Assembly: GCA_048571215.1 (NCBI GenBank)
Contig: CP182352.1
Coordinates: forward strand, 3,360,001-3,424,000
Source of the DNA: Halarcobacter sp.
GTDB lineage: Bacteria; Campylobacterota; Campylobacteria; Campylobacterales; Arcobacteraceae
Reading direction: 5' to 3'
Length of the DNA stretch: 64,000 bases
Part shown: positions 32,265 to 62,360 of the stretch, piece by piece
Layout of the letters: the number at the start of each line of letters is the position of its first letter
Position numbering within the stretch: position 1 is the first letter of the stretch
Made by a program: the position numbers and the translations under genes
The notes under the pieces: generated by a model
Seen by the model: the letters and a program-made list of their open reading frames with translations, nothing else
The model's database searches: none
What the model was told of the DNA's origin: nothing

Positions 32265-32266
32265 AG

Positions 32267-33529: not shown

Positions 33530-33531
33530 AA

Positions 33532-36352: not shown

Positions 36353-36370
36353 AATCTTTTTCCTACAAAA

Positions 36371-36640: not shown

Positions 36641-36655
36641 GCACATCACTTTTAA

Positions 36656-36809
36656 TTCCAAAGCTAATAATAACAAACTATTGTTATTATCTTAACGCTT
36701 TTCACATAAATTATCTCTTTGATTATATTTTATTTAAAAAGTGGAGATTCATTCTCAGGGGTGTTATTGGTGTTACTGTATTAATTATGTAAACTGTCCC
36801 CGGAATTTT
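36656..36809. repeat. ~150 bp direct repeat, copy 2
   Basis: Matches 35459-35612 with small indels. Confidence 0.9.
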
Positions 36810-36817
36810 AATTTTAG

Positions 36818-37201
36818 CTATCCTTCAGAACTAATTATGAAATTTGCATCTTCATAAAGATTATATTCATCAAAATCAATATAGTTATGAGCTGGAGAAA
36901 ATGATATAGATAAAAAATATTCAATAATTTCTCTCCATAAATTAGCATCCAAGTTTATTGATACATTTAAACCCTCAATTTTATTCAAAATATTAGCATT
37001 ATTATTTGAACATAATAAGATATTCAATTCTTTAGTATCAATGTAATTAAGATTACTTAATTGAATTAAATTACCATTTTGTTCACCCAAAAAATATAAA
37101 TCTTTTATTAGTTTAATATAATCGTAAGGTTTTCCTCTCCATATAAAACTGGGAGGAGGTTCGCCATACGCATATTCATCAGTAAGTTCTATTGTTATCA
37201 T
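36818..37201 (-). CDS. Probable cognate immunity protein
   Basis: Small acidic ORF starting immediately after the RHS stop. Confidence 0.7.
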   Translation of the reverse strand: MITIELTDEYAYGEPPPSFIWRGKPYDYIKLIKDLYFLGEQNGNLIQLSNLNYIDTKELNILLCSNNNANILNKIEGLNVSINLDANLWREIIEYFLSISFSPAHNYIDFDEYNLYEDANFIISSEG

Positions 37202-40200: not shown

Positions 40201-43200
40201 ATGAAACTATTAAATCTTCATTATAATCTAATACAAGATTATTAGGATAACCAATTGAAGTATCAAGTGCATAACTATTATTTACTATAGAACCTGTAAT
40301 AGCATTTCCAGCATATGTTTCTATGTAACCATTTTCATTAACTTTTCTTATTACTTTATTTCCATAATCTAGTATAAATATATTACCTTTAGAATCAATA
40401 TCAATGTTTGAAGGACCATTTAATTTTGCATTAACTGCTAACCCTCCATCTCCTGAATAACCTGATTCTCCCGTACCAATAACAGTTGAAATAGTATTTA
40501 AAGTATCTACTTTTCTTATAACATTATTTATAGCATCAACTAAATATAAATTACCTTCACTATCAAGTTTTATGTCTCTTATAAAACCTATTTTAGCCTC
40601 TGTTGCTGAACCTCCATCCCCTGAATAACCTGATTCTCCTGTACCTACAATTGTTGAAATTATACCATCAGAATCTACTTTTCTAATAACATAATTATTT
40701 GAATCAATAAAATACAAACTGCCATCATTATCAATTTCAACTACACTGGGATGACTAATTTCTGCATTAATTGCTAGACCATTATCACCGGAATACCCAT
40801 ATGTACCAGTTCCTACAATTGTTCTTACTATACCATTCTCATCTATTTTTTTTATCTTATTAGCATACCTATCGACAATAAAAATTTCACCTTTTTCATT
40901 TACCTTTATATCCGAAATATCACTAAATGATGCATTTAATGCCAATCCCCCATCACCACTATCTTGACTTATACCATTTCCTGCAATATGACTAATCTCT
41001 CCTAAAGGATCAATCTTCAATATTTTACTATTATTATAATCTTGAGAAGCAACATAAGTATTTCCTCCAGATAAACTCACCAATGATGATTTCCAACTTC
41101 TATTATAACCAGAAACATTATTACTAAAAGCTTCAAAGTCGTATTCTATTTCCTCAATTTTTTGATTAAAAATTAAACTTTTATTATTTTCAGTTCCATC
41201 TCCTTTTTGAAGAGAGAAATGAAATATTTTATCATAATTTGATAATGTCCATCCATTTGAAATTGCATTTTCTTTATTAGCTTTATATTGACTATCTATT
41301 ATAAAAAACTTAAATGACTTTAGAATAAATTCTTTTCTTGAGAGAATCCCTGTTACCTCATTTCCAAACTTTGCCCATGCATTAATTGTCCCTTGTCTAC
41401 TAAGTCCTTTTTGATAAACTGCTTTATATAAATACTTTACTATTAACTTAGCTTTAACTTTTCCCGGAACATAATTACCTAGTTTATCTTTTCCATCCCA
41501 TGTAAATGTTGCATTTGTAGAAAACTCATCTAAAGTAAAACTTTTTTCCTGTCTTTTTCCAAATATGTCTAATATTAATATAATCTTTTTTACACTACTT
41601 GGAGGTTGAAGTTGATCTTTTAAATCAATAATATACTTATAACCTTTAGTTCTTTTTGAAGAATAATGTAAAGTCAGGTTTGTACCTGAAATTGGGATAT
41701 CATCATGAAAAGCTCCCGTTGTGGTTTCAACAAAAGAACTTATGTTAACACTTGCACAAGTTTCACTACATTTACCAAAAGTTTTTTTACAGTTTTCATT
41801 AAGTTTATTTTTATCTTTATCTGTAGTTATATCGTTAATTTTAGGTCTTTCAACATTTTTATCAGGTACCCAAGGATAATTAGGATCCCAAGGAGTAAAG
41901 TGATTGATTTCCATTCTAGAATATGTTTTACCTACTTGGTAAACTATATTATCTTCTAATCCAATAACTTCACTTGTAAAAGTTCCATCATTATCTAAAT
42001 CATTTGGTTGTCCATCACCTGTTGAGTCTAAAGCATCTACAGTTCCATCATTATTTGTATCAAGTAGTTGTACAACAACACCATTTTTTGAACCTTTCCA
42101 TACACTTTCATTTCTATCATAATATCCTACAGGAACTACTACTCCAACATCAAACCCTAAAAAATTATCTACATACATGATAACAGGAGAGTTAAACTCA
42201 ACTGTTTCATCATCACTTACTCCATCTACTGTAAGATCAGAGCAATATGTATATGCTGATTCTTTTGGTAAATTTGCAGGCATTGACTCTGGCGTTTTAA
42301 ACTCTGTTGCTCTTACATCTATAGTGTCTAAAATTCTTGTTGAACCATCAGGAGATTTAACTGTTGCACTTGAAACTCCGTTAAATACTAAAGTAGTTGA
42401 CCTTGAACCTCTATCGTCACTAATAATTGATGAAGTGTGAACTTGCGGAGTTGAATCATTTAAATCTATTGTTGTAACTTTATCATCTATTCTTAACATT
42501 GTTACATCATCAACAATGTTCCAATTTGAAGCCTCTGCAAAAAGCTTTCTATCTATTGTGGTATATCCATTTTTTGTATATCTTACAATAATTGTTTTAT
42601 TTCCTTCTACTGGTAATACATAACTTCCATTTAGGTCTGTTTGAACAGTTCCAAGCTCTTCATTATAAACAATACTAATGGTTACATTAGATAAAGGATT
42701 TCCACTTTCATCATAAATATTTCCAGTAATCATAGAAAAAAGATTTTCACTATAAAATTCTTTTGTTGCATTAACTGGAATTTGATCTATATACTTTGTA
42801 CCAAAATGTGTAAAATTAAAATTTGTTGTTGCAGGTTTATCCACTACTTTTACTGGGATTAAAGCTGAAGTTATATCTCCTGATATTATCTTTAAAGTTG
42901 TTTCTCCTATTTGTAAACCAGTAAAAGTATCTACACCATCAAAAGAAACAATACTAGTATCTGCTATTTCATAAGTAAAATTTCCATTAATAGGTTTTAT
43001 AGAACCATCACTATATATTCCTTGTATGGATATTTGCTTATCATTATTTACTCTTAAAGTTATTGGATTTGGAGTTATTTTTATTGAATCTAAAACTAAA
43101 GGTTTTTTAACTTTTATAGTTACATCATTTGATTGAATTGTATCAATAGTTGCTTTTAAAGTTGTAATTCCTTCTTTTAATGATGTAATTGTTCCTGCAT

Positions 43201-44239
43201 TATCAACTGAAGCTATGGTATTATCTGCAATAGTCCAAGTAACATTTGAAGATAAATCTAATGAAGTCTCGTCACTGTAATATCCAGTAGCAACTATATT
43301 TTCTGTTTCTCCGATAGTTAAGCTTAGTTCATTTGGAGTTAGTTCTATGGAGTTTAATACAGCTTGAACTGTTATTGAAACCTCTTTTGTACTTGTTTGT
43401 CCATCATTGTCTGTTACAGTTAATGTAATAGTATATTCCCCTTGGGTATTAAATACATATGAGAATGTTTTTTCAGATGCTAATATATTAGAATTTTGAT
43501 CAGTCCAAAGATAGCTTACTATCTCCCCATCTTCATCCCTTGATAAGCTTGCATCAAAGCTAATTGATTCTCCAATTAAAATAGTAGTTGCACTTACTTG
43601 AAAATCTGCAATAGGTTTTATATAATCTATAACTTCAATATCAACAGTTGAAGATGAACTTAATCCATCATCATCTGTTACAGTTAATGTAATAGTATGT
43701 ATTCCAATACTTGTAAAAGTATAATCAAATATTTGATTACTGCTTAATATATCTCCATTATTATCTGTCCAACTATATGAGACAATATTACCATCACTAT
43801 CTGACGATGAAGAAGCATCAAAGGTTATTGAATCATTTATTTTTATCTTTGTATTATTTGTTTGTATTATTGCTTGAGGTGGTGTGTCGTTTGAAGTTTG
43901 GGGTTTTACTAAAATTTCAATTGTATCACTAGATTTTAAAGGAGAAATATAACCTCCTTTTTCTGTAGTTGTTAATTCAAAAATAAGTTTGGTGTCTTTT
44001 TTCACTACAGGAGCTATAAAACTTGCATTTATTGTGTTTTTATTTAAAAGTTTTACTTTTTTACCAAAAACTTGTTTCCATTTATATTTTTCTATTTTCC
44101 CACCAACTTCAGTGGTACTCAAACTTCCATTTAACACTACAGGTGAAGAAGATTCAACCACTTTATCTTTACCTGCATCTGCACATCCTGTAAAAAGTAT
44201 TGCAAATAAAAGCATCAAACTAAAATACAAAGATTTCAT
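37202..44239 (-). CDS. Teneurin-like RHS/YD-repeat lipoprotein toxin (PKD, Ig-like, NHL, YD shell, C-terminal toxin)
   Basis: Lipobox LFTGC; PKD DASxSxDxDGxIVSY repeats; GYSGDGG NHL repeats; YD repeats; PFGFAGGLYD...PINGIDPEGL; His-rich tip GEWRPHLPDKYHPKGHWD. Confidence 0.9.
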   Translation of the reverse strand: MKSLYFSLMLLFAILFTGCADAGKDKVVESSSPVVLNGSLSTTEVGGKIEKYKWKQVFGKKVKLLNKNTINASFIAPVVKKDTKLIFELTTTEKGGYISPLKSSDTIEILVKPQTSNDTPPQAIIQTNNTKIKINDSITFDASSSSDSDGNIVSYSWTDNNGDILSSNQIFDYTFTSIGIHTITLTVTDDDGLSSSSTVDIEVIDYIKPIADFQVSATTILIGESISFDASLSRDEDGEIVSYLWTDQNSNILASEKTFSYVFNTQGEYTITLTVTDNDGQTSTKEVSITVQAVLNSIELTPNELSLTIGETENIVATGYYSDETSLDLSSNVTWTIADNTIASVDNAGTITSLKEGITTLKATIDTIQSNDVTIKVKKPLVLDSIKITPNPITLRVNNDKQISIQGIYSDGSIKPINGNFTYEIADTSIVSFDGVDTFTGLQIGETTLKIISGDITSALIPVKVVDKPATTNFNFTHFGTKYIDQIPVNATKEFYSENLFSMITGNIYDESGNPLSNVTISIVYNEELGTVQTDLNGSYVLPVEGNKTIIVRYTKNGYTTIDRKLFAEASNWNIVDDVTMLRIDDKVTTIDLNDSTPQVHTSSIISDDRGSRSTTLVFNGVSSATVKSPDGSTRILDTIDVRATEFKTPESMPANLPKESAYTYCSDLTVDGVSDDETVEFNSPVIMYVDNFLGFDVGVVVPVGYYDRNESVWKGSKNGVVVQLLDTNNDGTVDALDSTGDGQPNDLDNDGTFTSEVIGLEDNIVYQVGKTYSRMEINHFTPWDPNYPWVPDKNVERPKINDITTDKDKNKLNENCKKTFGKCSETCASVNISSFVETTTGAFHDDIPISGTNLTLHYSSKRTKGYKYIIDLKDQLQPPSSVKKIILILDIFGKRQEKSFTLDEFSTNATFTWDGKDKLGNYVPGKVKAKLIVKYLYKAVYQKGLSRQGTINAWAKFGNEVTGILSRKEFILKSFKFFIIDSQYKANKENAISNGWTLSNYDKIFHFSLQKGDGTENNKSLIFNQKIEEIEYDFEAFSNNVSGYNRSWKSSLVSLSGGNTYVASQDYNNSKILKIDPLGEISHIAGNGISQDSGDGGLALNASFSDISDIKVNEKGEIFIVDRYANKIKKIDENGIVRTIVGTGTYGYSGDNGLAINAEISHPSVVEIDNDGSLYFIDSNNYVIRKVDSDGIISTIVGTGESGYSGDGGSATEAKIGFIRDIKLDSEGNLYLVDAINNVIRKVDTLNTISTVIGTGESGYSGDGGLAVNAKLNGPSNIDIDSKGNIFILDYGNKVIRKVNENGYIETYAGNAITGSIVNNSYALDTSIGYPNNLVLDYNEDLIVSSNDKLYRIYTSNFFTDNEIEDGIININSNNTAELFNLAGNHIETIDLFSKKVLKSFTHDENKRLISVKNQFDNEILIGRNENGIPTIITAPNGQKTYLNVDSNGNLLSVTYEDNTSHQFEYNNDSLLTKHTEPSGASSFNLYDDNGRIIKEIDVNNEEWFLQKNISDAFIEYALGKPEGDIKFYREIKLENDSLKQETVFPNGDSNSITVSSDNRLVNAIKNNINIQSKYKTDPETKKRVLDSVTTILPSSLSKVTSNSAVYETNENGLTTSKTQTITTNGKATTIKNDYENGINTITTPEGRIAKEEYDINTRLTTSSTSGTLTPTTYTYDNKGRVISQTTGTRTTSFTYNSRGNIDTITDERGKTTSYQYDILDRVTRVTHPNGAIEEYSYDVSGNMTRLITPISTNHDFTYDNIGQRTSMKSALNKQTLYEYNGNRKLTQITRPSGKTIVNNYVNDRLDSTTTPEATINYEYIFNNQIGTITKGSEKIEYGYDGNLLSLLTYNGVLNEGLSYTYNDDFLPISFTYAGITENYTYDNDGLVLTSGDYTLTRDAENAYVTKITDGNFVQNLSYDNYGELTKVADNSFSYEIISKDNSALILQKQETVNNTTKTYDYTYDDNARLIEVKKDGNIVETYSYDNNENRTSATVNGVTTSGYYTLDDQVEVYGDNTYTYDEDGYLSSKVTPNGTTTYSYSTLGELKEVKTPSKTITYKHNANNQRVAKLVNGVVVEKYLWADLTTLLAIYDGNDNLVQRFEYANSRMPISMTQGSNKYYLHYDQVGSLRAVSDSNHDIIKEIIYDSFGNILEDSNPDFKVPFGFAGGLYDSDTGLTRFGYRDYDSYTGKWTAKDPIDFSGGDTNLYGYVLGDPINGIDPEGLNAFVITRPMIIPRPITIPKMPINPIIQIGDIESGEGIDLSDTSTWPKPPVNGECKEGNPSKNKPKNRGEKSLYDDTNGEWRPHLPDKYHPKGHWDNKPGGNNGKSKWENIYLNNLNMGWI

Positions 44240-44690: not shown

Positions 44691-45920
44691 ATGAGAATAA
44701 AAAATCATATAAAAGTTCTTAAGGGTAAGAATCGTTTTGCAGTTTATAATCTAAAAAATGGAACCTGCGAACCTGCAACTAAAATAGAGATTGAATTGCT
44801 TAGATTAATCTCTATAAGGAAAACCCTTACCCCTAAGAAAGCTAATATCAAAAATTTATGGTTTCACTTATCTTCTATGAGAAAAAAAGGTTGGTTAGAA
44901 GCTGGAAAAGCTCAAGTTTATCTTCTTGATTTAGAGATTAAAAAAATAGATAATTCCAATAATAAAACTTTTGAAAGAGTTTGGATTGAACCCACTTTAT
45001 CTTGTAACTTCTCTTGTAATCACTGTTATGCAATGTCCAATAATAAAGTAAATCGTGATAATGAATTAGATGAAAATCAATGGATAAACATCTTACAAAA
45101 AGTTTTAGTTTATGATATAAAGTATATTACCTTTATTGGTGGAGAACCAATGATTAGAAAAGATTTAATAAAATCTTTAGTGATATATATAAAAGAAAAT
45201 TCTCCTAATATTAAAGTTGGCATTTTTTCTAATTTATACAACATAATAGATGCTGATATTCAATTTATAATTGAGCATAATTTAGGTGTATCTACTTCTT
45301 TATATGGAATAGAAGCTAATGAACATGATAAAATGACTAACAAAGTTGGTTCCTGGGTTCGAACAGTAGAAGTGATTAAAAAACTGACAAAAAATAATAT
45401 AAATGTATTTGTTGGTTACTTTAAAAACAATAAAGAAATCACAAACTTAACTATCAAGTCATTTCTCAACAGTTTAGGAGTTACATCTTTTGATATCCAA
45501 AATCATCATAATGTAGGAAGAGCTATACAAAAAGCGCCTATAAAAGTTTCAAAAGACAATATATTGCCTTTAAAAATGTCATTTAATCCTAACACTATTT
45601 CAAAGTATAGTAGTGAACATAATTGTTTTTCTAATCATATATCAATATCTTCAAATGGAGATGTAATGGGTTGTATTATGATGAGAAAGCCTGAATATGG
45701 AAACTTACTTAGTGATTCACTTGACAAAATATTAAGTAGTAAAAATTATATTCAACTTTCAAAATTAACAAAAGATAAAATAGAAGGTTGCTCTGAATGC
45801 GAATTTAGATATGGATGTTTTGACTGTAGAGCAGGTGCAATGAGTGACTCTAATAATCTTTTTAAAAAACCAGATTGTGGCTATGATCCAAGATTAGTAT
45901 TAAGTTTTGAAAATGACTAA
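44691..45920 (+). CDS. Radical SAM/SPASM peptide maturase
   Basis: CNFSCNHC, GGEP, SPASM cysteines incl. CSECEFRYGCFDCR. Confidence 0.9.
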   Translation: MRIKNHIKVLKGKNRFAVYNLKNGTCEPATKIEIELLRLISIRKTLTPKKANIKNLWFHLSSMRKKGWLEAGKAQVYLLDLEIKKIDNSNNKTFERVWIEPTLSCNFSCNHCYAMSNNKVNRDNELDENQWINILQKVLVYDIKYITFIGGEPMIRKDLIKSLVIYIKENSPNIKVGIFSNLYNIIDADIQFIIEHNLGVSTSLYGIEANEHDKMTNKVGSWVRTVEVIKKLTKNNINVFVGYFKNNKEITNLTIKSFLNSLGVTSFDIQNHHNVGRAIQKAPIKVSKDNILPLKMSFNPNTISKYSSEHNCFSNHISISSNGDVMGCIMMRKPEYGNLLSDSLDKILSSKNYIQLSKLTKDKIEGCSECEFRYGCFDCRAGAMSDSNNLFKKPDCGYDPRLVLSFEND

Positions 45921-46584
45921 TGAAACTTTTTTAAATATAATGTTTGAAGTTGAAACAAAAGGTTTCTGTGATTTAGGGGTTATTAAAAATTTTGATTTAT
46001 TAAAATTTGCATATAAAATTGGCAAACCAATTCCAATCTTACCAGATGAACCTAAATTAGGTTTAGTAGGTGCAAGAAGTCTTTCATCAAATCTTTCTAG
46101 TAATGAATACGCAACAATTTATAAAGAAAATATACCTTTTCATACTGATGCAGCCTATTATAAAATTCCCCCAAAGTATTTAATACTTAGATTAAAGAAA
46201 ACATCTTTGTCTAATCGCAATACGACTGTAAAAAAATTGTTTACAAATCTCTCTCAAGAGATAGTTGATATTTTAAGCAAATCTCTTTGGAAAGTTAGAA
46301 GTCCAAATGGTAGATATTTTATAGGAAAAATTATTGAAAGAAGAAATAATGATTTTTTTATTAGATATGATTCAAATTCAATGGTACCTTATTTCAAAAA
46401 AAATCAATATTCAAGGGAAGTATTAGAAGGAGTATTAGATAAGATACAAACTTTTGAGATAACTTGGGAGCCTGAAAAAATTGTTATATTAAATAATTGG
46501 AAAGTACTTCATGGTAACAGCAAAGTTATAAATGATATTGACTCTTCGAATAGAATTTTAGAAAGAGTTTTGGTTGAAGTTTGA
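45907..46584 (+). CDS. TauD-like Fe(II)/2-oxoglutarate dioxygenase
   Basis: FHTD (HxD), NWKVLHG, terminal RILER. Confidence 0.75.
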   Translation: MKMTNETFLNIMFEVETKGFCDLGVIKNFDLLKFAYKIGKPIPILPDEPKLGLVGARSLSSNLSSNEYATIYKENIPFHTDAAYYKIPPKYLILRLKKTSLSNRNTTVKKLFTNLSQEIVDILSKSLWKVRSPNGRYFIGKIIERRNNDFFIRYDSNSMVPYFKKNQYSREVLEGVLDKIQTFEITWEPEKIVILNNWKVLHGNSKVINDIDSSNRILERVLVEV

Positions 46585-51596: not shown

Positions 51597-52863
51597 TATT
51601 TTCAGCAATCATTTGAATAACCGTTGAGTTAACGGCATTTCCTAAAGCTTTAAATGCAGTTGATCTCGCACGTGGTAATTCCTTTAGGTTATGTAGACCC
51701 TGTAAACAAGCTGCTTCTTTGCTGTTTAAATATCTTTTTTCCAAGCCTAAAATTGGTATTTGAGTAGTTGTCATTGATATCAAAGAGGGAGCTGAGTTAG
51801 CTCTAATTATTCTAATACCAGAAGCTCTAAATTGTATTAGATGTTCCCATAGATTTTTTTTAGATAAACTTCTATCACTTTGCCATTGAAGTTTTTGCCA
51901 GCTTTGAGGAGAGGCTTTTAATTCTTTAATAAAAGGATTAAATGTATTAGGAGAACTATTATAAATTTCTCTACTAGATGCTAATGAAGTTGATATCCAT
52001 TTAACAGGTTTTTTCATTTTTCTATCAATATAGTGAGGTAAGAGTTCAAAAATCTCATTCCATGTTTTACATTTACTTAATGGAACTCCCCATGCACCTT
52101 TGTATCTTTTCATCTCATTTAATGTTAATTTACTAAACTCAATAGGATAATTTGCTCCAAACTCACTAGATACAATGTAATGCCCCGTTAAACTAGGAAT
52201 ATTAGAAATAATTGATTGCCATGTATTTAAAATTTTTTCTTTTCTGTCTTCAAGCTTTTTTTCATTTTCATTAGATAATTCAAAGTTATTAAAATATTTA
52301 AGAATATGATCACTAGAATTTTCTGAAGAAACCTCTGGCCATTTTATTTTGGCAGTATTATTTTGTTTTTTTGCAATAATAAATATTCTTTTTCTTTTTT
52401 GTGGGATATTAAAATCAACGGGAGAATATATTTTATCTTCTAAATAATAGCCTATTTTAGAAAATGATTCATTCAAGTAATTCCAAAAACTACCATTATC
52501 AATTGTTTTGATATTAGGAACATTTTCTAAAAAAATCATTTCAGGAGTGTGATGTTTTGCTATTCGTATTACATCATCTATTAGTTTTCCAGAAGTAGGG
52601 CATTTAGCACCCTTTTGCATGCCTGCTATTGAAAAGGGCTGACAAGGAAAGCCTGCACATAAAATATCATGTTCAGGAATGTCTTTTTCCTTTACTTTTC
52701 TAATATCTCCCTCTGGTTTTATTCCGTAATTTTTTTCATACAATTCTCGTAAATGATTTTCAAGTTCACAAGCAAATACACATTCCATTCCTAGTGAATG
52801 AAGTGCATTATGAAAACCTCCAAGACCTGCAAATAAATCAATAAATTTAAGCTTTTCTCCCAT
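51553..52863 (-). CDS. C5 cytosine DNA methyltransferase
   Basis: DLFAGLGG, GFPCQPFS, ENV, PQKRKR, GNAV. Confidence 0.95.
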   Translation of the reverse strand: MGEKLKFIDLFAGLGGFHNALHSLGMECVFACELENHLRELYEKNYGIKPEGDIRKVKEKDIPEHDILCAGFPCQPFSIAGMQKGAKCPTSGKLIDDVIRIAKHHTPEMIFLENVPNIKTIDNGSFWNYLNESFSKIGYYLEDKIYSPVDFNIPQKRKRIFIIAKKQNNTAKIKWPEVSSENSSDHILKYFNNFELSNENEKKLEDRKEKILNTWQSIISNIPSLTGHYIVSSEFGANYPIEFSKLTLNEMKRYKGAWGVPLSKCKTWNEIFELLPHYIDRKMKKPVKWISTSLASSREIYNSSPNTFNPFIKELKASPQSWQKLQWQSDRSLSKKNLWEHLIQFRASGIRIIRANSAPSLISMTTTQIPILGLEKRYLNSKEAACLQGLHNLKELPRARSTAFKALGNAVNSTVIQMIAENTIPEIMPTLKASGY

Positions 52864-53043
52864 TTTATTTACCTTTTAAAAATTAATATTTATTTAAATA
52901 TAATTTATTATATTTAAATAAATATTAAAATAGACTTAATAAAAAGTATTAAAATATAATAATACGCATAAAAATTATTAAATAAAACATAAAGCTTCTT
53001 TACTATACAATTAAAAAATAATAAAATGTAATGGAAAATAATT

Positions 53044-53712
53044 ATGCTAGAAGATTATATTAAATTTCCACAACGCAAAATAAAAAAGAGCTATCGTTCT
53101 GTCATTGGGCATTTCCCTAGTATAAAAAATGGTAAATCAATAATCTATGAGTCACTATTGGAAAGAGCCTTATATCTATCTTTGGAATTTGATGATAGTG
53201 TTTTTGCATATTATGAACAGCCTCAAATTGAAATTGATTTTAAAAATAGACATTCAACATATAGCTTAGATTGCTATATCCGAAGAGTAAAAGAATCAGG
53301 GGTTAAAGATACGATTATTGAAGTAAAATATTCAAATGAACTTGAAAAAAATAAAGAATACTTTGAAGAAAAATTTGAAGATACGAAAGTGTTTGCGAAA
53401 GAACATGATTTAGAATTTGATGTATTTACTGAACTTTCATATAGCAAAGAATATATAGAAAATTTAGACTTTTTATATAGGTATAAAGAAAATCCAATAG
53501 AACATAAATATGAAAAAGAGATATTGGATGTTCTTAAAGACACTACAAAATTAGCTGCATTTGATTTAGTGCAAAAACTTACATCTAATCCAAAAGAATA
53601 TGCAATAGTTTCTAATAACATTTGGTCATTAGTTTCAACTGGTAAATTAAAGACAGATTTATTTGCTAATGAGTTTACTATGAATTCTTTAGTGGAGTTA
53701 AACAATGGCTAA
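53044..53712 (+). CDS. tnsA: TnsA endonuclease
   Basis: YESLLER...LEFD...EQP...D...IEVK PD-(D/E)xK pattern; overlaps the tnsB start. Confidence 0.85.
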   Translation: MLEDYIKFPQRKIKKSYRSVIGHFPSIKNGKSIIYESLLERALYLSLEFDDSVFAYYEQPQIEIDFKNRHSTYSLDCYIRRVKESGVKDTIIEVKYSNELEKNKEYFEEKFEDTKVFAKEHDLEFDVFTELSYSKEYIENLDFLYRYKENPIEHKYEKEILDVLKDTTKLAAFDLVQKLTSNPKEYAIVSNNIWSLVSTGKLKTDLFANEFTMNSLVELNNG

Positions 53713-55591
53713 TGTAATTTCCTTTGATATTGATAGTAAAATTTTTTACCAAGATGTAGAATATATTATAAAAGGATATCCCTCTTTAGAGGAAGTACTC
53801 CTCAAAAAATTAAATAAACCATATAATGAAAAAATTGTAAAAGTCAATGATTTAATTAGTGACCCTAAAAATATAAAAAAGAGAACAAAAGAATTAGTTG
53901 ATACTGAACAAAAAGAATTAGATAAAGCAACTGAACGATTTAAGATTATTGAACCTTTATTAGACATTGAAAATAGAACAGCAAAAGATGTTCAAAAAGT
54001 TGCAAAGAAAAATAAAAAAGGTATTGCCACAATATATAGATGGCTTAATACTTATGAGCAATACAAAACTGTAAGTTCACTAGCTTCTAGAAGAGAATTT
54101 TGTGGAGGTAAAGGAAAAAGTAGATTAGACGAATCTGTTGATACAATAATCAATAGTGTAATAGAAGAGATGTATTTACATAAACAACAATATCCCCTGC
54201 AAGATATCTATGAAGAGATTGTTTATAAATGCCAGAATATAGAACTAAAAGCACCCACAAAAAATACGATAAGAAATAGAATAAATGCTTTACATCCAAA
54301 AATTATTGCAAAATATAGAAATGGAATAAGAGTAAATGAAACTAGAGGAATGCCAAATAAATTTCCAGATGTGAAAATGCCTTTAGACATTATTCAAATT
54401 GATCATACTAAAGTTGATGTTATTTTGGTTGATGAAGAAAATAGAGAACCAATTGGAAGACCTTTTATTACTGTTGCAATTGATGTATATAGTAGGATGA
54501 TGTATGGCTTCTATATCTCTTTAGAAGCCCCTAGTTATTTTAGTGTAGGGCAATGTTTATTAAATGCAATTTTACCAAAGGATGAATTATTAGCAAAATA
54601 TAAAGTTGAGGGAGAATACCCTGTTTATGGATTGCCTAGAAAGGTACATATGGACAACGGTAAGGACTTTACTTCAATTAGTTTACGTAATTTTTGTCAA
54701 GAATTTAGAATAGAAGATCGCTATCGTCCAGTTGCTAGACCTGAGTTTGGTGGTGCAGTAGAAAGAGTTTTAGGCACATATATGAAAAAGATGCATTCCT
54801 TGCCAGGTACAACTAGATCTAATATATTTAAAAGAGGAAGTTACGATTCTGAGATAGAAGCTGCTATGACTATTGATGAACTTGAAGAATGGTATTTGGA
54901 TTTTGTAATAAATGTTTATCATAAAACTGAACATAGCTCAATATTTATGACACCTGAAGAGAAATTTTATCAAGGTTTATATGGCGTCGGAAAAGAAAAG
55001 TCTATCCCGTTTTTGCCTACAGTTCCAACAAATACTTTAAAGCTTAGAATGGCATTACTTCCTCAAATAAAACGTAGTGTTCAAAAAAATGGTATCACTA
55101 TTGATTATATTACTTATTTTTCAGAATCTTTGAGAAAATGGATTATTCCATCTCAATATAAAAAATTAAAACCTAATTTAAAAAATGAAGTTATTTGTAG
55201 ACGTGACCCAAGGGATATTAGTAAAATATATGTATATGATGAAGATATTAAAGATTATATCACTGTTCCATATGCAGATATTAGAAAACCTAAAATGAAC
55301 TTATCTGAGCTTAGAGAGGCAATTTCGGAAGCAAAAAAGCAAATAACAGGAAGAGAACTTGAACCTCATGATATTTTTGAAGCAAAAGAGAGACTTCGAC
55401 AAAGGGTTGAATCTGCAAAAAGAGAAAAAAAATCTGTAAGACGTAAAAGAAGTTCTAAAAAGCATCAAGAAAAAATTTTAAATATGGAAAAAGAGAGAAT
55501 TGATTATAAAGAGACCAAACCTACACCTTTAAAAATATCCCAAGCACAGGATGAAGATGAGGAAGGTTATGATATATATCCTATAGGTTGA
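53705..55591 (+). CDS. tnsB: TnsB/TniA DDE transposase
   Basis: QIDHTKVD, AIDVYSR, MDNGKDF, GAVER, RDPRDIS. Confidence 0.92.
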   Translation: MANVISFDIDSKIFYQDVEYIIKGYPSLEEVLLKKLNKPYNEKIVKVNDLISDPKNIKKRTKELVDTEQKELDKATERFKIIEPLLDIENRTAKDVQKVAKKNKKGIATIYRWLNTYEQYKTVSSLASRREFCGGKGKSRLDESVDTIINSVIEEMYLHKQQYPLQDIYEEIVYKCQNIELKAPTKNTIRNRINALHPKIIAKYRNGIRVNETRGMPNKFPDVKMPLDIIQIDHTKVDVILVDEENREPIGRPFITVAIDVYSRMMYGFYISLEAPSYFSVGQCLLNAILPKDELLAKYKVEGEYPVYGLPRKVHMDNGKDFTSISLRNFCQEFRIEDRYRPVARPEFGGAVERVLGTYMKKMHSLPGTTRSNIFKRGSYDSEIEAAMTIDELEEWYLDFVINVYHKTEHSSIFMTPEEKFYQGLYGVGKEKSIPFLPTVPTNTLKLRMALLPQIKRSVQKNGITIDYITYFSESLRKWIIPSQYKKLKPNLKNEVICRRDPRDISKIYVYDEDIKDYITVPYADIRKPKMNLSELREAISEAKKQITGRELEPHDIFEAKERLRQRVESAKREKKSVRRKRSSKKHQEKILNMEKERIDYKETKPTPLKISQAQDEDEEGYDIYPIG

Positions 55592-55596
55592 AATAG

Positions 55597-56466
55597 ATGA
55601 ATGAAAGAAATTTGACAAAAGAAGCTTTAGCGTATTTAGAAAAAAGTGATGAAGAAAGAATTTTATATTGTAAAAAAGATCATTGGATAGGATATGGTGC
55701 AGCTGTAAAATTAATTGAGATTTTAGAAGATAAGTTCTTTGATCCTCCTCAAATGAGACATGAAGGCTTATTGATTTATGGCGACTCAAACAATGGTAAA
55801 ACTGCTATCTTAAGAAAAATGTATGATTTACATAAAGTCAAATTAGAGCCAATTGAAAAAGGCGATAACATAACTTATGATATTCCTATAATATATTTTC
55901 AAGCTCCCACAGTTCCCGATGAAAGTAGATTGTATAGTCTTATATTAGAAGAACTTTGTGCTCCTTGTAAGCCAACAGAGAAATTATCAATAAAAGTAAA
56001 ACTTGCAAAGCATTATTTAAATAAATTAGGAACAAAGATGATTTTAATAGATGAGATTCATAGTTCGTTAACTGGTAATCTAAATAAACAAAGAACTTTT
56101 ATAGATGATTTAAAGCAGCTAAGCAATAGTTTGTCATTAACCATAGTTTTAGCAGGGACAAGAGCTGCTCACTCTGCTTTATCAATTGGAGAAGAAACAG
56201 CAACAAGGTTTCCTTCTATTGAACTTCCTAGATGGAACAATGATAGAAAGTTTAGGTCTTTTATTGCTACCTATGAACGATGTTTACCTCTAAAAGAGGC
56301 TTCAAATATGGCAGATAATCCAGAGATAATAAATGCACTTTTTCATCAATCTGAAGGATTAATTGGAAAAACAGTGAATTTATTGAAAAAAGCAGCAGTA
56401 AAAGCAATCAAATCAAAAAGAGAGTATATTATAGTCTCTGATATAGAGTATTTACCAAAGTTGTAA
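55597..56466 (+). CDS. tnsC: TnsC/TniB AAA+ ATPase
   Basis: HWIGY, GDSNNGKT, LIDEIH, TRF. Confidence 0.9.
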   Translation: MNERNLTKEALAYLEKSDEERILYCKKDHWIGYGAAVKLIEILEDKFFDPPQMRHEGLLIYGDSNNGKTAILRKMYDLHKVKLEPIEKGDNITYDIPIIYFQAPTVPDESRLYSLILEELCAPCKPTEKLSIKVKLAKHYLNKLGTKMILIDEIHSSLTGNLNKQRTFIDDLKQLSNSLSLTIVLAGTRAAHSALSIGEETATRFPSIELPRWNNDRKFRSFIATYERCLPLKEASNMADNPEIINALFHQSEGLIGKTVNLLKKAAVKAIKSKREYIIVSDIEYLPKL

Positions 56467-56467
56467 T

Positions 56468-57640
56468 ATGAAAACTAAAAAAAGAAATAGAGATTGGGTT
56501 CAAGACTATTTCTTTTTGTTTATTTCCAAACCTTTAAAAGATGAACTTTTAAGTTCTTGGTTAACCAGAGTTGCTTTTGAGCATCAACGAGATCTTTCAA
56601 GTTTTATATCACTTTTCATAAGACATCAAGGAAGCACAATAGCAAGAGCTGATATTGATTTTTTATATGATGAAAAACTATTTAAACAATTAGCTAGAAA
56701 AAGCCATTTATCTGATAAAGAAATATATCAAATGTCTTTACGTAGTGAAGAAGGACATCTTTTTATTTGTTCTGAAAATGGGTTATATCCACCTTTTCAA
56801 ATTAGAAAATTAACTGACAAAAGAACTCATCATGCTTTAATGTATTGTCCAAAGTGTTTAGCTGAGGAAAAAATTCCATATTTTAGGAAAAAATGGAGAT
56901 ACAACTTTTATAATGCTTGTCCAAAACATAAGATATTTTTAACAGACAGATGTTGGCGATGTTATACAAAAATTGAATTTCCAAAAATAAAACATCTAAA
57001 AGAACTTTGTTTTTGCTATAACTGTGAAAAAGATTTAAGAGAAACTATTACGATATCTATTCAATCAAATCATAAATATGGATTAAAAGCTATTGAGTGG
57101 TTTGAAAAAGGATTAAATAAAGGATATTTTATAATAAATAAACAAAAAGTTAAATCAGTTTTTATATTTGAAAGTTTTACAAAATTGAGATTTTTATTAG
57201 GTAAAAAACAAAAATTAGATTTAGAAGCCTTTCCTTTGATAGAAGAGTATAAAGATATTTGTAAAAAGCTAGAAAAATATAATTCTAAAAAAGCTTTATC
57301 TATATATAAAGAGTTCGTATTAACCTCAATGGTTTATTATCTATTTCAGAATTATCCTAATAATTTAATTGATTTCTCAAAACAAAACCATTTTACTCAT
57401 AGGGATTTTGTTCATGGTTTTAAAGATATTCCATTTTGGTATAAAGAACTAATAGATGAGATTATCCCCATGCAAAATAAAATAGGTAGAGTAATTAGTG
57501 AAAGTGAAGTTTTAGGAGCTATTAAGTATTTAAAAAATCAAAAGAAAGTTGTAAATCAATTAAATGTGGCAGAAGTTGTAGGTTGCCATTTTACAATACA
57601 TAAGGGTTTTATAAAAATCTACAAAAGAATAATCAAATAA
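56468..57640 (+). CDS. tniQ: TniQ/TnsD-like target selector with C-terminal HTH
   Basis: PLKDELLSSWLTR, YCPKCL, CPKH, CWRC, CYNC zinc motifs. Confidence 0.9.
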   Translation: MKTKKRNRDWVQDYFFLFISKPLKDELLSSWLTRVAFEHQRDLSSFISLFIRHQGSTIARADIDFLYDEKLFKQLARKSHLSDKEIYQMSLRSEEGHLFICSENGLYPPFQIRKLTDKRTHHALMYCPKCLAEEKIPYFRKKWRYNFYNACPKHKIFLTDRCWRCYTKIEFPKIKHLKELCFCYNCEKDLRETITISIQSNHKYGLKAIEWFEKGLNKGYFIINKQKVKSVFIFESFTKLRFLLGKKQKLDLEAFPLIEEYKDICKKLEKYNSKKALSIYKEFVLTSMVYYLFQNYPNNLIDFSKQNHFTHRDFVHGFKDIPFWYKELIDEIIPMQNKIGRVISESEVLGAIKYLKNQKKVVNQLNVAEVVGCHFTIHKGFIKIYKRIIK

Positions 57641-57642
57641 TC

Positions 57643-59340
57643 TTAAATTTTTCCTAATAATCCACTATACCACTTAGCTAATTGCATATCATTCAAACTT
57701 TCATTTCTCTCATGATTCTTTTTAGCAAATTTAGGATTAGTTTTTTTATATTTTTTGGAAATGTCAGGAATAGAAATATCATCTTTACAATATAAATTGA
57801 TGAAAAGATTAAATATATCTTTTGTTATAAATGAATCAGAAATTATTACCCAACAAGATGCAGATGAAGATGTATAGTTTTCTAATTCTAATAATCCTAC
57901 ATGAGAATTTTTATATTTAAAAGTAGCAGTTAAATATTGTCTAGCTCTTTTTTTCATTTTGCATTTAGAGTTAATCTTTTTTTCACCATTTTTTTCAACT
58001 ATAAATTCAGGTAAATGAGTTACTTCATTTAAAACAAAATTTTCAATAGGTTTTTGTTTCTGTAAAAAATCCATGTATTGCTTAAATACTATAAAATTAT
58101 CTATTTCCTTTAGAGGAGTTTTTTCACCTTTTTCAAATTCACTAGAGATTATCACTCTTCTGGTTGTTTTATCTCCTTTTGATGAGGACTCTGTAAGACT
58201 TTGATCAACTTTATCTCCATTCTCTTGCTCTTGATATATTTTTAGTAAATCCTCAATAATATCTTTAGTCTTTGTTTCATGTTCTATTTCAATATTTTGT
58301 AAACTTCCACAACTTTTTTTTCTGTCTTTTTGATGTTGAGTTCTGGTGTGTTTTTTATTTGCATGTTTTACTTTTAATATTTCAGTAGTCTCTTCAGGAA
58401 TTTCTCTATCAACTTTAGAAAGATTTTCTAAATCATTTATAGTTGTAATAACTTTATTTTGCTCAATAATTTTTGTAAATTTGTCAAATCCTATATCTGA
58501 GTAATCATTTAAAATTTCATGAATATAATAGTATTGTTCGTTTGTATCTTTATTTGTCAATAGAGTTGCTTTTACATCTATTTTAAATTTTTCTTTCACA
58601 GGAAAATTTATTTTTAGATGAATATCTCCAGGTTCTTTATCTATATCCTCTTGTCTCATATATGCAAGATAGTTGTGTATATACTTGCCTATATTATCAA
58701 ATTCATTATGAGCAGTTTCTTGACAAGCAAATCTATGTATAAAAGCAGCATCTTCATCTGTACGTGGAGTTGGTAATACAATTTTTGCATCTGCTCTATT
58801 ATCATCACACATAATATATAAACTTTCAACATTACACTCTAAAGAGGCTTCTCTCATTTCTGAAAATCTAAAGTAATAATATATACCTATCGCATAATGG
58901 GGGATTATAATTTTGATACCAGATTGCTCTATTAAATAACAGTTAATATATTTTGCAGTATTTAAAAATGTATAATTCCAACCAAGTAAAGTACCAATAG
59001 TCTTATAATCAAGTATTTCATGTAGTTTCTTTGATGAAGAGTTGTCTATTAAAGAGGTATCAATGAAAAAACTTTCTTCAAAATTTTCTTTATCTGGATA
59101 ATTTTCTGTTTTATCACTATTTTTAAAAGATTTACAAAGAGGAAAATGTGTAAATAAAAGTTCAGGAGAGATAAGTTTTGAAAACACATTACCAGTAGAC
59201 ATATTTTTAATTACGACTTCATAATGACTATTCCCAAACTTATCTTCATCAAGGATTAATTTTAAAGGAAATAAGAGTTTAAAAGTATCATTTGGATTAT
59301 CAGACATAAAATCAGGAATAATACTTTTACCCTTTGACAT
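57643..59340 (-). CDS. TnsE-like protein (tentative)
   Basis: 565 aa, conserved next to the element end in both C and D; IIIPHYAIGIYYYF and RQYLTATF...VGLLELE...SASCWVI recall TnsE N- and C-terminal patterns. Confidence 0.55.
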   Translation of the reverse strand: MSKGKSIIPDFMSDNPNDTFKLLFPLKLILDEDKFGNSHYEVVIKNMSTGNVFSKLISPELLFTHFPLCKSFKNSDKTENYPDKENFEESFFIDTSLIDNSSSKKLHEILDYKTIGTLLGWNYTFLNTAKYINCYLIEQSGIKIIIPHYAIGIYYYFRFSEMREASLECNVESLYIMCDDNRADAKIVLPTPRTDEDAAFIHRFACQETAHNEFDNIGKYIHNYLAYMRQEDIDKEPGDIHLKINFPVKEKFKIDVKATLLTNKDTNEQYYYIHEILNDYSDIGFDKFTKIIEQNKVITTINDLENLSKVDREIPEETTEILKVKHANKKHTRTQHQKDRKKSCGSLQNIEIEHETKTKDIIEDLLKIYQEQENGDKVDQSLTESSSKGDKTTRRVIISSEFEKGEKTPLKEIDNFIVFKQYMDFLQKQKPIENFVLNEVTHLPEFIVEKNGEKKINSKCKMKKRARQYLTATFKYKNSHVGLLELENYTSSSASCWVIISDSFITKDIFNLFINLYCKDDISIPDISKKYKKTNPKFAKKNHERNESLNDMQLAKWYSGLLGKI

Positions 59341-59532
59341 GTTAGTTTAAACTCCCATTATCAAATTTTATTTGACATATTATCACTTTTTATTTCCTAT
59401 TATCATTTTTTTTTGCTTTTGACAAATGATACTTTTACCTTTAGACATATTAAATTAAACTTCCATTATCAAAGTTTATTTTACATATTATCACTTTTTA
59501 TTTCCTATTATCATTTTTTATTTTTTCTGACA
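59321..59532. repeat. Two tandem ~108-bp-offset transposon ends, each with three ATTATCA TnsB-site cores
   Basis: 59321-59424 and 59429-59532 are homologous; each ends in GACA. Confidence 0.9.
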
Positions 59533-61389
59533 CCTCATACTAATATACATATGAATAATATCAATAGCAGCTGGAGTTACTCCTGAAATTTCACTTGCAT
59601 TGAAAAGTGTTGGTGGATTAAACTTTTCTAGTTTTTCAACTACTTCATTTGATAATCCTGGAATATCTTTAAAGTTAAAGTTTTCCGGGATTTTCAATTG
59701 AAGCATTTTTTTCATTTTTTCTATTTGTTTTTTTTGTTTTGCTACATATCTATAATATTTTGCTTCGATAATGATTTGCTCTTTTAGATAGTCTTCTGTA
59801 TTGGCTAAGCTTGGAACTAACTTATCAAATTTTTCTTTATCAACGGTATTTCTTCCCACTATATCAATAAGAAGTGCTCTGTCTTTGATTTTGTCTTCAC
59901 CTAAACTTTCAAGTAGTTCTAGGTTCTCTTTTTTTGAGGTAAACCATTCGTTTGCCATAAATTCAACTGCATTTTGTAGTACCTCTTTTTTGTGTTCTAC
60001 TTTTTGTAGTTGTTCTTGTGAAACTAGTCCAAGCTCATATCCATATTTTGATAGTCTCATATCTGCACTCTCTTCTCTTAGAAGAAGTCTATATTCAGCA
60101 CGGCTTGTAAACATTCTATATGGTTCATTTGTTCCTTTTGTAACTAAATCATCAATCAAAACTCCAATATATGCTTCATCTCTTCTTAGGATAAAAGGCT
60201 CTTTCCCATCAATTGCCAGACAAGCATTTATCCCTGCCATAAGCCCTTGTGATGCTGCCTCCTCATATCCTGTTGTTGCATTGATTTGTCCCGCATGGTA
60301 AAGGTTAGATATCTTTTTTGTTTCAAGGGTATGCTTCAATTCAGTTGGATCAACATAATCATATTCTATAGCATATCCATATCTTATGATTTTTGCATTT
60401 TCTAAACCTTGTATTGAGTGTATCATCTCTTTTTGTACATCAATTGGTAAAGAGGTACTTAGTCCATTTATATAGTACTCTGTTTTCATTGCTGTTTGTG
60501 GTTCTAAAAACAGTTGGTGTCTTTCTCTCTCGCTAAATCTACTTATTTTGTCTTCAATACTTGGACAATATCTAGGACCTCTACCTTCTATTTGACCTGT
60601 AAACATTGGAGCTCTATGGAAGTTACTTGAGATTTTATCATGGGTGTTTAGGTTTGTATATGTTATAAAACATGGATGTTGTGTTGGCTTGAAGTTTGAT
60701 TTATCTGTTCTAAATGAAAAAGGTGTTGGCTCTTCATCCCCTCCATGGGCATCCATAACATCAAAGTTAATAGAGCTTGCATCTATTCTTGCAGGTGTTC
60801 CTGTTTTTAGTCTTCCTACTTTTAGTCCTAACTCTTTTAACTGTATAGATAAGGTTGAAGATGGTAGTTCCCAAGCTCTTCCTGCATCATATTTGTTTTC
60901 CCCTATATGGATAAGTCCTTTCATAAAAGTACCTGTAGTTATGATAACTTTTTTACTTTCAAATACTTCACCAAGTTTTGTTTTTACTCCATAAACTTCA
61001 TTTTCATTTTTAACTAAAAGTGAAGATACTTCATCTTGATAAACTTCTAAGTTAGGAGTATTATGACAAACTTTTCTCATATACTCTCTATATTTATCCA
61101 TATCGATTTGTGCACGACTTCCTTGTACTGCTGCACCTTTTGAGGCATTTAGAACTCTAAATTGTATACCTGTTGCATCAGTACAAAGTCCCATCTCTCC
61201 ACCTAGTGCATCAAGCTCTCTTACTAGGTGACCTTTTGCAAGACCACCAATAGCAGGATTACAAGAAGCAGCTCCTATTTGTTCAACAAGCATAGTAATA
61301 AGTAGGGTTTTTTTACCCATTCTTGCACTTGCTAAACTAGCTTCTATCCCAGCGTGTCCACCGCCGACGACTATTACATCATATTTCAT
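59518..61389 (-). CDS. mnmG: tRNA uridine-34 5-carboxymethylaminomethyl modification enzyme MnmG/GidA
   Basis: [47 protein letters not shown]. Confidence 0.98.
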
Positions 61390-61745
61390 TTTTTTCCTTA
61401 AAATAGTCCCTGTTTTTTAGGACTTTAATCTAATGAGCTCTTTTAAGAGGATGGCTTTAGCATCTTTAAAGAGAACAACGAATTGTTTTTTTATTATTTA
61501 GGAAATCTCTTAGATAAATGTTTTCTTCCACTTATCTAAAAGATTTACAAAATTACTATCTTAATAAATTTTTGGTATTATATCACATTGAAGTTAGTTA
61601 ATACTTTATATTAGAAATTACAAAGAACAATTCATTGTTCTCTTTAGCTTTTTCCTTCTTTTTAACAAAATTTATTTTTGCACTATAAAAAGAAGAGATA
61701 TAATAACTGCTCCCTTTTTTAATGGGACATTTTAAAAGGACACAT

Positions 61746-62360
61746 TTGTTTACAGGTTTGATTAGAGAACTAGCTGATGTTATTAGTCTAAAAAACAATT
61801 TTTTAACTCTAAAGGCAAAATATACACCCAAAATAGGTGATTCTATCGCTGTTAATGGAGCTTGTTTAACTGTTGTTAGGCTTAGCTCTGATACTTTTAC
61901 AGTTGAGCTTTCACCTGAGACACAAAAAATCTTGGCTATGGAAAACTATAGAGGAAAGGTTCATATAGAACCTGCTATGATGATGGGTGATAGGTTTGAA
62001 GGACATATTGTCCAAGGTCATGTGGATTGTTTAGGGACAATAAAAACCATCACAAAGAGTGGAAATTCAACTGATTATATAATCTCACTTCCAAATGAAT
62101 ATTCAAAATATATTATTCCAAAGGGGAGTGTAACTATAGATGGGGTTTCACTTACTGTAAATGAGGTGATGAAAGACTCTTTTAGACTTACGATTATTCC
62201 ACATACTATTGAAAATACACTTTTTAGAACTTATAAAATAGGTTCAAAAGTGAATCTCGAAACCGATATGTTTGCCCGATATATTTATAATATGTTTAAA
62301 GGTGGTAAGGATAGTGGATTGACTTGGGATAAGGTTGATTCTATTATGGCTTCGTATTGA
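61746..62360 (+). CDS. ribE: Riboflavin synthase alpha subunit
   Basis: TTG start gives MFTGLIRE; GDSIAVNGACLTV, GHIVQGHVD, KGSVTIDGVSLTV. Confidence 0.95.
   Translation: MFTGLIRELADVISLKNNFLTLKAKYTPKIGDSIAVNGACLTVVRLSSDTFTVELSPETQKILAMENYRGKVHIEPAMMMGDRFEGHIVQGHVDCLGTIKTITKSGNSTDYIISLPNEYSKYIIPKGSVTIDGVSLTVNEVMKDSFRLTIIPHTIENTLFRTYKIGSKVNLETDMFARYIYNMFKGGKDSGLTWDKVDSIMASY

Follow-up and report, generated by a model that had tools for sequence, protein, structure and literature searches.

How does a Tn7-like transposon without TnsF reach a fixed position at the 3′ end of the mnmG (gidA) gene, and what could be the role of a gene that is read in the opposite direction from just within its end? 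These questions are raised by element D, a transposon located in a 64,000-nucleotide stretch of Halarcobacter sp. DNA (contig CP182352.1, positions 3,360,001 to 3,424,000), which is further called the window. The reading preferred here, to which we assign a probability of about 0.8, is that D is a Tn6022-like, five-gene transposon of the Tn7 family that lacks TnsF, and in which TniQ would serve homing to mnmG and TnsE would serve dispersal.

Genes and ends of element D

The core genes and the attachment (att)-proximal end of D are listed below; identities are to the Tn6022 proteins, lengths are in amino acids (aa), and HTH stands for helix-turn-helix.

53044-53712 (+): tnsA, 222 aa; PF08722 TnsA-like_N, E 5e-11; 23% identity
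53705-55591 (+): tnsB, 628 aa; rve and Mu-transpos_C domains (Pfam); 33% identity
55597-56466 (+): tnsC, 289 aa, TniB family; PF05621, E 2e-50; 35% identity
56468-57640 (+): tniQ, 390 aa; PF06527; helical C-terminal half with a three-helix HTH-like unit at residues ~340-390; 24% identity
57643-59340 (-): tnsE, 565 aa; residues 411-565 are the TnsE C-terminal DNA-binding fold
59341-59424 (-): att-proximal end of D; TGT, three close TnsB-like sites, then a Shine-Dalgarno-like GGGAG
59280-59329 (-): 13-bp inverted repeat in tnsE codons ~4-20, with arms at 59329-59317 and 59292-59280

The open reading frames (ORFs) and Pfam matches agreed with the preliminary description of this DNA, in which tnsA-tnsB-tnsC-tniQ were directed toward the mnmG side with cargo upstream of tnsA, and they made up a complete Tn7-like gene set of TnsA, TnsB, TnsC and a TniQ-domain protein. 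The convergent 565-aa gene, which had been placed 84 bp inside the transposon end, indeed begins there: its ATG is base 85 of the end whose TGT starts at 59424, past three TGATAAT cores at positions 20, 40, and 62, the third of which is directly followed by GGGAG. The stop codons of tniQ and tnsE are separated by 2 bp. Its TGT/ACA ends both carry several TnsB sites, which are clustered at one end and spaced at the other. When a matrix built from the ends of eight relatives was run against the 3.6-Mb genome, the top three of the five hits above threshold were 59424, 28638, and 59532, and therefore these ends are not chance matches. Each of the five D tns genes is present in a single copy in this genome, apart from remnants inside the window.

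The 565-aa protein is a TnsE homologue

Because the 565-aa protein alone matched neither Pfam nor NCBIfam, its identity as a TnsE homologue is visible only through its relatives and its fold. A phmmer search returned 133 relatives, many of 540-600 aa, and the query was aligned with 59 long ones (60 sequences), of which 26 matched PF18623 TnsE_C. The profile of this alignment matched Tn6022 TnsE with an E value of 4.9e-5 (probability 68, 361 columns, starting from column 124), and three TnsE chains were present among the five rows of its weak matches in the Protein Data Bank (E 0.06-0.23). The preliminary description had suggested a TnsE-like protein, and comparison of folds brought this out most directly. 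The structure was predicted with a mean local confidence (pLDDT) of 92, and the top seven Foldseek rows obtained with it were all TnsE C-terminal domains (E 0.01-0.18). The VIA-align superposition on the C-terminal domain of Tn7 TnsE (9d5l) gave Z 13.4 with a root-mean-square deviation of 3.2 A over 145 residues, while in a wide search of 48,161 fold representatives TnsE came first with Z 12.1, the next value being 6.4. A point against the general reading is that the N-terminal two thirds of the protein, the part where PriB/SSB-like domains belong in the TnsE family, had no match among solved folds; this part is strand-rich in the high-confidence model, and hits to the C-terminal domain took up the fold lists. 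A search of genome contigs with the single TnsE protein found two loci, one of them spurious-looking. The ratio of nonsynonymous to synonymous substitution rates (dN/dS) was 0.11-0.25 in all six pairs formed by four same-genus tnsE copies, which indicates at the codon level that tnsE is under purifying selection.

Element D is nested in an older element at the mnmG att site

The following features of the window describe the position of D relative to mnmG and to the older elements C and A.

28638-59424: element D, 30,787 bp; TGT...ACA ends with AATGA on both sides; lies within C and is the most recent of the Tn7-like elements in the array
28633-28637 (+): target-site duplication of D, left copy AATGA
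59425-59429 (+): target-site duplication of D, right copy AATGA, which is codons 7-8 of the tnsE of C
28638-30100 (+): distal end of D, in which an IS256-family element lies between a terminal (near 28650) and an inner (near 30080) TnsB-like site
28676-30005 (-): IS256-family element; Mutator transposase at 28729-29946; 8-bp duplication TTTCCTTT
16869-59532: element C, 42,664 bp including D; CCTCA at 16864-16868 and 59533-59537
59425-59532 (-): att-proximal end of C and its first tnsE codons; tnsE ATG at 59448; mnmG has its last four codons and its stop in 59532-59518
59533-59537 (+): target-site duplication CCTCA in the mnmG reading frame; canonical att position
59518-61389 (-): mnmG (gidA), the host gene with the attachment site; Pfam domains stop at residue 612, before the junction
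28120-28470 (+): decayed tnsA of C, with internal stops and the middle deleted; 77% to TnsA
28453-28637 (-): remnant of the 5′ part of tnsE of C, 79%; after the codon interrupted by D, its frame is taken up again at 28637
11150-11344 (-): att-proximal end of the older element A with a short tnsE remnant; TGT at 11339, CCTCA at 11340-11344; the next distal end starts from 11345

The mnmG-proximal end assigned to D in the preliminary description is a real transposon end, yet 59424 is not the mnmG junction, as the end of C (59425-59532) lies between them and the mnmG reading frame is fused to the end of C, not of D. Insertion of D into mnmG was rejected; D is inside the tnsE of C. It lies 108 bp off the canonical mnmG point, where it splits this gene at codons 7-8, just past the TnsB sites of C, so that the first codons at 59448-59425 are continued from 28637. 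The two tandem ends, 59317-59424 and 59425-59532, are identical at 95 of 108 bases; a simple tandem duplication of 108 bp was ruled out, since AATGA flanks D and the tnsE frame of C crosses it. The decayed tnsA (+) and the tnsE 5′ part (-) of C repeat the layout of D, as had been noted earlier. The 5-bp target-site duplications are AATGA for D and CCTCA for C, and CCTCA is present three times in the window (11340, 16864, and 59533), which reflects stacked insertions at one point. Most likely, D arose by a TniQ-pathway event that was displaced by the occupied end, an explanation that we hold with some reservation.

Two features of the array speak against the general reading. The distal end of D is split by the IS256-family element, and hence D itself may be immobile. 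In addition, the array has formed although target immunity would be expected to hinder stacking. Since stacked copies occur both in the window and in another genome (G492), target immunity can be overcome.

The family uses four attachment genes

The TnsE profile matched 42 of the 401 genomes of the class. Among the 39 TniQ-positive genomes of this set the D-type family was present in 33 and TnsE was matched in 35, two of which have a TnsF-type TniQ; no other TniQ element is as frequent in this sample of the phylum as the D-type family. In the first 40 loci the upstream, co-directional neighbor of tnsE was mnmG 16 times, argJ 6 times, a 5′ fragment of dprA 5 times, and a 5′ fragment of comM 4 times, while the remainder consisted of five near-clonal loci with a cargo gene in between (the comM end in two of them), one off-site locus, one plasmid-like contig, and two unreadable loci. 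Another 48 loci comprised 47 of 51 metagenome loci (four partial ones were left out) and L001, with a few genomes repeating earlier ones; the mnmG motif was upstream in 34 of them, nine were elsewhere, and five were too short.

The insertion point in mnmG is nearly constant. In the 34 mnmG loci the end followed the conserved His codon at +20 in 17, +21 in 13, +23 in 2, +32 in 1, and +41 in 1, that is, at 20-23 bp in 32 of 34. This spacing, fixed to 1-3 bp from a conserved coding motif, bears on the possibility that TniQ is needed and insufficient, and that a host protein or the structure of the gene end, such as a terminator or a stalled polymerase, gives much of the specificity. Several off-site copies that directly adjoin the 3′ end of a co-directional gene would fit such a mechanism, as would the insertion of D into an inverted repeat, in its 5′ arm, the help that host factors give to Tn7 TnsD according to the literature, and an intact same-genus element 48 bp past the canonical point, directly after a terminator-like hairpin (G472, L131 and L158; duplication TTTTT). 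With the narrow spacing and with the mid-gene position of the dprA and comM sites, we regard this explanation as improbable, and recognition of the coding sequence by TniQ is preferred.

Perfect 5-bp duplications were found in 6 of 18 mnmG loci tested, two more had one mismatch, and for the remaining loci, whose far end was often outside the fetched DNA, none was found. All three same-genus mnmG elements with intact ends have perfect duplications. At the other sites they were present at argJ in 2 of 5, at dprA in 3 of 5, and at comM in 4 of 6, with 3 more at comM. In 40 distinct canonical junctions, which were pre-selected at offsets 20, 21, and 23 and are hence no measure of spacing, the mnmG stop codon is located 15-42 bases inside the transposon end. 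Thus, mnmG loses only its variable tail and receives its stop codon from the transposon end. Insertion into the last codons of a conserved gene is unlike the usual rule of insertion outside the gene.

The trees of TniQ, TnsC, TnsB, and TnsE, which have midpoint roots and contain kin that are not independent, all group by att gene. The TnsB and TnsC phylogeny that had been called for earlier placed the mnmG elements, together with one off-site copy, in their own clades (support 97/99 for TnsB, 100/98 for TnsC, and 100/100 for TniQ), apart from Tn6022 and from two TnsF-bearing elements of the Campylobacterota sample. In most elements the core converges with tnsE, and the two are co-oriented in G258 and G191. 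The only genes common to the eight complete mnmG elements, which are those bounded by duplications and do not include G258, are tnsA, tnsB, tnsC, tniQ, and tnsE.

In the full-text literature that was searched, with subscription papers and several supplements beyond reach, mnmG, argJ, and dprA were not found described as att sites. The names gidA and mnmG are absent from the accessible main texts of Faure 2023 (PMC10293859), the archaeal Tn7 preprint, Petassi 2020, and Hsieh and Peters 2023 (PMC11406308), and from the stored part of the Faure 2023 supplements. Three att sites on which the searched literature is silent are added, comM is reached without TnsF, and dprA is a further natural-transformation gene broken by an element. 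The four sister clades, each with one small TniQ, provide a natural series on how TniQ proteins gain new DNA specificity.

Several details of individual loci were also noted. Two sub-clades split dprA at two positions (L046/L090 and L045/L092 versus L047 and L069/L094). Locus L071 (G219) is a tandem array at argJ, in which the duplication GTAAA is repeated. In L001, L188, L207, and L084 a newer element seems to have inserted into the end of an older one, displaced from the canonical point by a few tens of bases. At four apparently empty mnmG sites (L116, L117, L120, and L129) the hairpins just downstream resemble by eye the inverted repeat of tnsE, and they are perhaps scars kept as terminators.

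TniQ is the likely selector of mnmG

With Tn6022 TnsF as a tblastn query no match below E 0.5 was found in this genome, while the same query found TnsF in two other loci (E 2e-57 and 5e-46). In D the tniQ gene is followed by the stop codon of tnsE, and no tnsF is operonic with it. As only five tns genes are shared by all eight complete elements, the 390-aa TniQ is the likely selector. Its predicted structure (pLDDT 85) consists of a TniQ fold and a following three-helix unit, which resembles the HTH regions of TetR and sigma factors, and this HTH-like tail is conserved in the TniQs of the mnmG, argJ, and dprA elements and of one comM clade. The review of Hsieh and Peters (PMC11406308) states that the end with overlapping TnsB sites is the one nearest the att sequence. 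Because it is the clustered end that is turned toward the 5′ portion of mnmG, the recognized sequence would be located in the conserved codons upstream. Taken together, TniQ with its C-terminal HTH-like unit is likely the mnmG selector.

Some data do not favor this assignment. The HTH match is weak (Z 4-5 over ~45 residues) and the arrangement is a common one, matches to TnsD in the Atlas scored 0.80-0.82 and are a lead only, and PF15978 was not matched in TniQ by Pfam. Moreover, three comM-inserted TniQs from loci without TnsF (L063, L098, and L100) are 313-332 aa long and end before the HTH, so the HTH is not the whole story in the wider family.

These comM-clade proteins, which still reach comM, are among the observations that could be explained if the TnsE homologue had been co-opted into an att-site selector, replacing TnsF beside a short TniQ. 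The TniQ of D is about as short as that of Tn6022 (390 versus 371 aa), which needs TnsF, TnsE is present in all eight complete elements, and its tree clusters by att gene like the TniQ tree (6 changes, shuffled mean 16.4). However, the TnsC and TnsB trees cluster by att gene equally well, so that the clustering tells of shared descent only. The C-terminal fold is that of the structure-specific TnsE domain, the Tn6022 transposition with TnsABC+E was spread across an F plasmid according to Correa 2024 (PMC11014353), and the mnmG-clade TniQs keep the conserved HTH-like tail. We therefore find a selector role of TnsE hard to credit, and favor TniQ in this role. The predicted complex of TniQ with TnsE scored 0.00, which is evidence neither way.

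Evidence for a second pathway

The preliminary description proposed an element with two targeting pathways, and the comparison of genomes supports this behavior of the family, in which a fixed mnmG site with duplications is accompanied by copies on mobile-type DNA. An mnmG-clade element with the duplication CTATG was found away from mnmG, among integrase, ParA-like, primase-like, and toxin-antitoxin genes. In genome G067 a TnsF-less comM-clade element is present in comM and again, with 99-100% identity, on a 102.7-kb contig that carries TraN, TraH, TraC, coupling protein, and Rep3 genes.

Other copies fit such a pathway less well. The flanks of the G067 contig copy form no duplication (ACAAA versus CAGAG). 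Nine of the 48 further loci are away from mnmG; two of these off-site copies, which have long flanks, are not on plasmids but adjoin the 3′ ends of ordinary genes of the chromosome, and one of the two copies has an intact HTH. No plasmid record of PLSDB was matched by tblastn with two TnsE queries. Damage to the TniQ HTH as a rule for every off-site copy was considered and dropped, as it was true for one copy (370 aa) and false for two others. The off-site copies of L190 and L210 come directly after genes for an HD-domain protein and a deaminase that run in the direction of tnsE, and these gene ends are possible secondary sites.

The lack of PLSDB matches, as well as the truncated tnsE remnants of 63-126 codons that are common at the att-proximal end, could also mean that tnsE is a passenger kept beside the end that gives mnmG its stop codon, with no working plasmid pathway. 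Such an explanation is very improbable given the low dN/dS in all six pairs, the full-length tnsE of all eight complete elements, and the tnsE copies on a conjugative-type contig and in a backbone resembling an integrative element.

In the two-pathway mechanism that we prefer, the element would be cut and pasted by TnsA and TnsB, with the chemistry taken from knowledge of the family and the 5-bp duplications as observed. For homing, TniQ would bind the conserved coding sequence near the mnmG 3′ end, probably via its C-terminal HTH, and load TnsC, after which the end with close TnsB sites would be joined 20-21 bp past the last conserved His codon, as seen in the geometry of the site. Because the recognized mnmG sequence would survive the insertion, later elements could stack at the same point. 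For dispersal, TnsE, read inward from the same end, is proposed to direct insertion to replicating or conjugating DNA, a function assigned to the observed fold by analogy with Tn7 and Tn6022. Interaction with the beta clamp and targeting of conjugating DNA belong to the features of the TnsE family, for which the copies on mobile-type DNA are indirect evidence only.

Comparison with known transposons

The preliminary description considered the core unusual when set against Tn7 and Tn5053. Tn5053 is not known to have TnsA. This view of the core did not hold when Tn6022 of Acinetobacter was included, as Tn6022 has the same TnsA plus TniA/TniB/TniQ-type core (at the identities listed above for TnsA, TnsB, TnsC, and TniQ) and its tnsABC-tniQ genes also point toward the end bearing tnsE, which in the Tn6022 record is on the opposite strand ~100 bp inside. 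The layout is thus already known as the Tn6022 layout, and the position of Tn6022 tnsE on the opposite strand near an end is stated in Faure 2023 (PMC10293859). According to Correa 2024 (PMC11014353), orf4 is TnsE, transposition with TnsABC+E into the F plasmid was spread across the plasmid, and Tn6022/AbaR elements have internal and proximal insertions at the att site; the 5-bp duplication and the stacked and internal insertions are shared with the D family. On the other hand, the D family has no TnsF, its att site is in mnmG and not comM, its TniQ, TnsC, and TnsB clades are separate, its TniQ ends in an HTH-like unit, and mnmG is apparently functional and not split mid-gene. Hence, D is a Tn7-like element that works like Tn6022 and Tn7, and it is not a member of Tn6022, as it lacks TnsF, uses another site, and falls in another clade.

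The similarity to Tn7 includes two pathways, one with a TniQ-family protein that would recognize a conserved gene by its 3′ coding sequence and one with TnsE, the clustered TnsB sites at the att-proximal end, and the C-terminal fold of TnsE. In contrast to Tn7, D has a TniB-type 289-aa TnsC and a 390-aa TniQ, its tnsE stands by itself in inverted orientation at the clustered end and tnsABC lie closer to the opposite one, and insertion occurs within the last codons of mnmG, whereas Tn7 inserts downstream of glmS; neither the co-oriented tnsABCDE nor the glmS att site of Tn7 proper is present here. The TniA/TniB/TniQ Pfam families are shared with the tni module of Tn5053/Tn402, from which D differs by TnsA and TnsE and by a chromosomal coding-sequence target as opposed to plasmid res sites (PMC11406308, Table 1). 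The TniQ fold is also shared over most of its length with the CRISPR-associated transposons of type I-F3 (Tn6677 and Tn7016), but D has TnsE and no cas gene or array was seen in it. Data S1 of Faure 2023 (PMC10293859; 17 of 387 "tnse" places) also includes loci, among them node4288 and node38945, for which tnsA-B-C-tniQ and a tnsE on the opposite strand are given but no tnsF; they are alike in gene set and orientation and may or may not belong to the D family. No att gene is named for them in the part covered. One Arcobacter locus is given there with tnsA, B, C, and tniQ.

Expression of tnsE

The start of tnsE is 74-85 bp inside the end in all eight complete elements, and therefore its transcript comes either from within the TnsB sites or from mnmG. 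The suggestion made earlier, that tnsE is controlled by TnsB binding or by mnmG read-through, is plausible in that the geometry allows both. Because the tnsE start directly follows the third TnsB site, binding of TnsB to the end could well damp its expression, as it does for the Tn7 operon; in Tn7, TnsB represses a promoter in the right end (PMC9308760). A promoter scan of 52700-61800 gave 61 sites, compared with 54.4 +/- 6.4 in shuffled sequences, which is chance level. No terminator-like site was found between mnmG and tnsE by a scan that requires three G-C pairs, in an AT-rich genome. One RNA run, for which only contigs could be used, gave pieces covering host genes; none of the eight shown bridges the mnmG-end junction, and it provides no usable cover.

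Over 18 sequences, 88.9% of the cells of the 13-bp inverted repeat at the start of tnsE are paired, and the repeat has seven double changes (4/500 shuffles), whereas synonymous codon resampling gave 71.3 +/- 2.4% paired, with 0/5000 samples reaching the observed value. The excess is missing in 3-5 of the 18 sequences, the double changes are at 3 of 13 pairs, and the covariation term of RNAalifold is 0. The repeat may be an attenuator or a protein-binding dyad.

At each of the four att genes tnsE runs in the direction of the host gene, and dprA and comM serve natural transformation. A speculative and rather doubtful extension of this is that the element, as it cuts into mnmG ahead of the terminator, would make tnsE the next cistron of the host transcript, with TnsB and the hairpin as a valve, competence-driven expression at dprA and comM, and a 390-aa TniQ retargeted four times in one phylum without TnsF or CRISPR. 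If this were true, TnsE would be switched on by host competence signals while the element disables DNA uptake. Against it, the orientation can also be explained simply by which end faces the TniQ site, and some comM elements have a cargo gene between the end and tnsE.

Cargo and older remnants in the window

30109-52863: cargo of D; pgl-like glycosylation, 2345-aa RHS/YD protein, radical SAM and TauD pair, SEFIR/TIR-NACHT, GHKL ATPase, C5 methyltransferase

The pgl-like cluster of D occupies 30109-35306, and its STT3/PglB gene is present as two overlapping ORFs (31695-32264 and 30109-31800). The 2345-aa RHS/YD-repeat protein (35705-44239 region) also has PKD, Ig, and NHL domains, and its gene is followed by small ORFs and 41-87 bp repeats, which by their look would be orphan toxin-immunity modules. 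A radical SAM/SPASM gene with a TauD-family neighbor is located at 44691-46584. The cargo of C at 18523-27933 includes defense functions, namely SIR2-HerA, a complete QatABCD, and a GmrSD-like protein; the mnmG site gathers defense systems. No cas gene or CRISPR array was found when the ORFs and Pfam matches of D and the eight complete elements were read, and there were no Rfam matches in the window.

Farther to the left, a 163-bp piece of the IS256-family element that splits the distal end of D is present at 16701-16863 and abuts the left duplication of C, and the att-proximal end of another element, B, is missing there. Two degenerate att-proximal ends of the G273/G065 type, at 9100-9222 and 11150-11339, flank a KefC-type antiporter gene, and both keep a strong inverted repeat of the tnsE start (z -3.0 for the copy at 11190-11300). 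On the left side of the island, relatives with an empty site continue either into the KefC-type gene at 9271-10989 or into a gene located ~35 kb left of the window. A 3′ remnant of tniQ at 992-1290, with 68% to the tniQ of D, and the genes at 1723-8943, which are a type I methyltransferase/specificity pair and an AAA protein, are probably cargo of a still older element.

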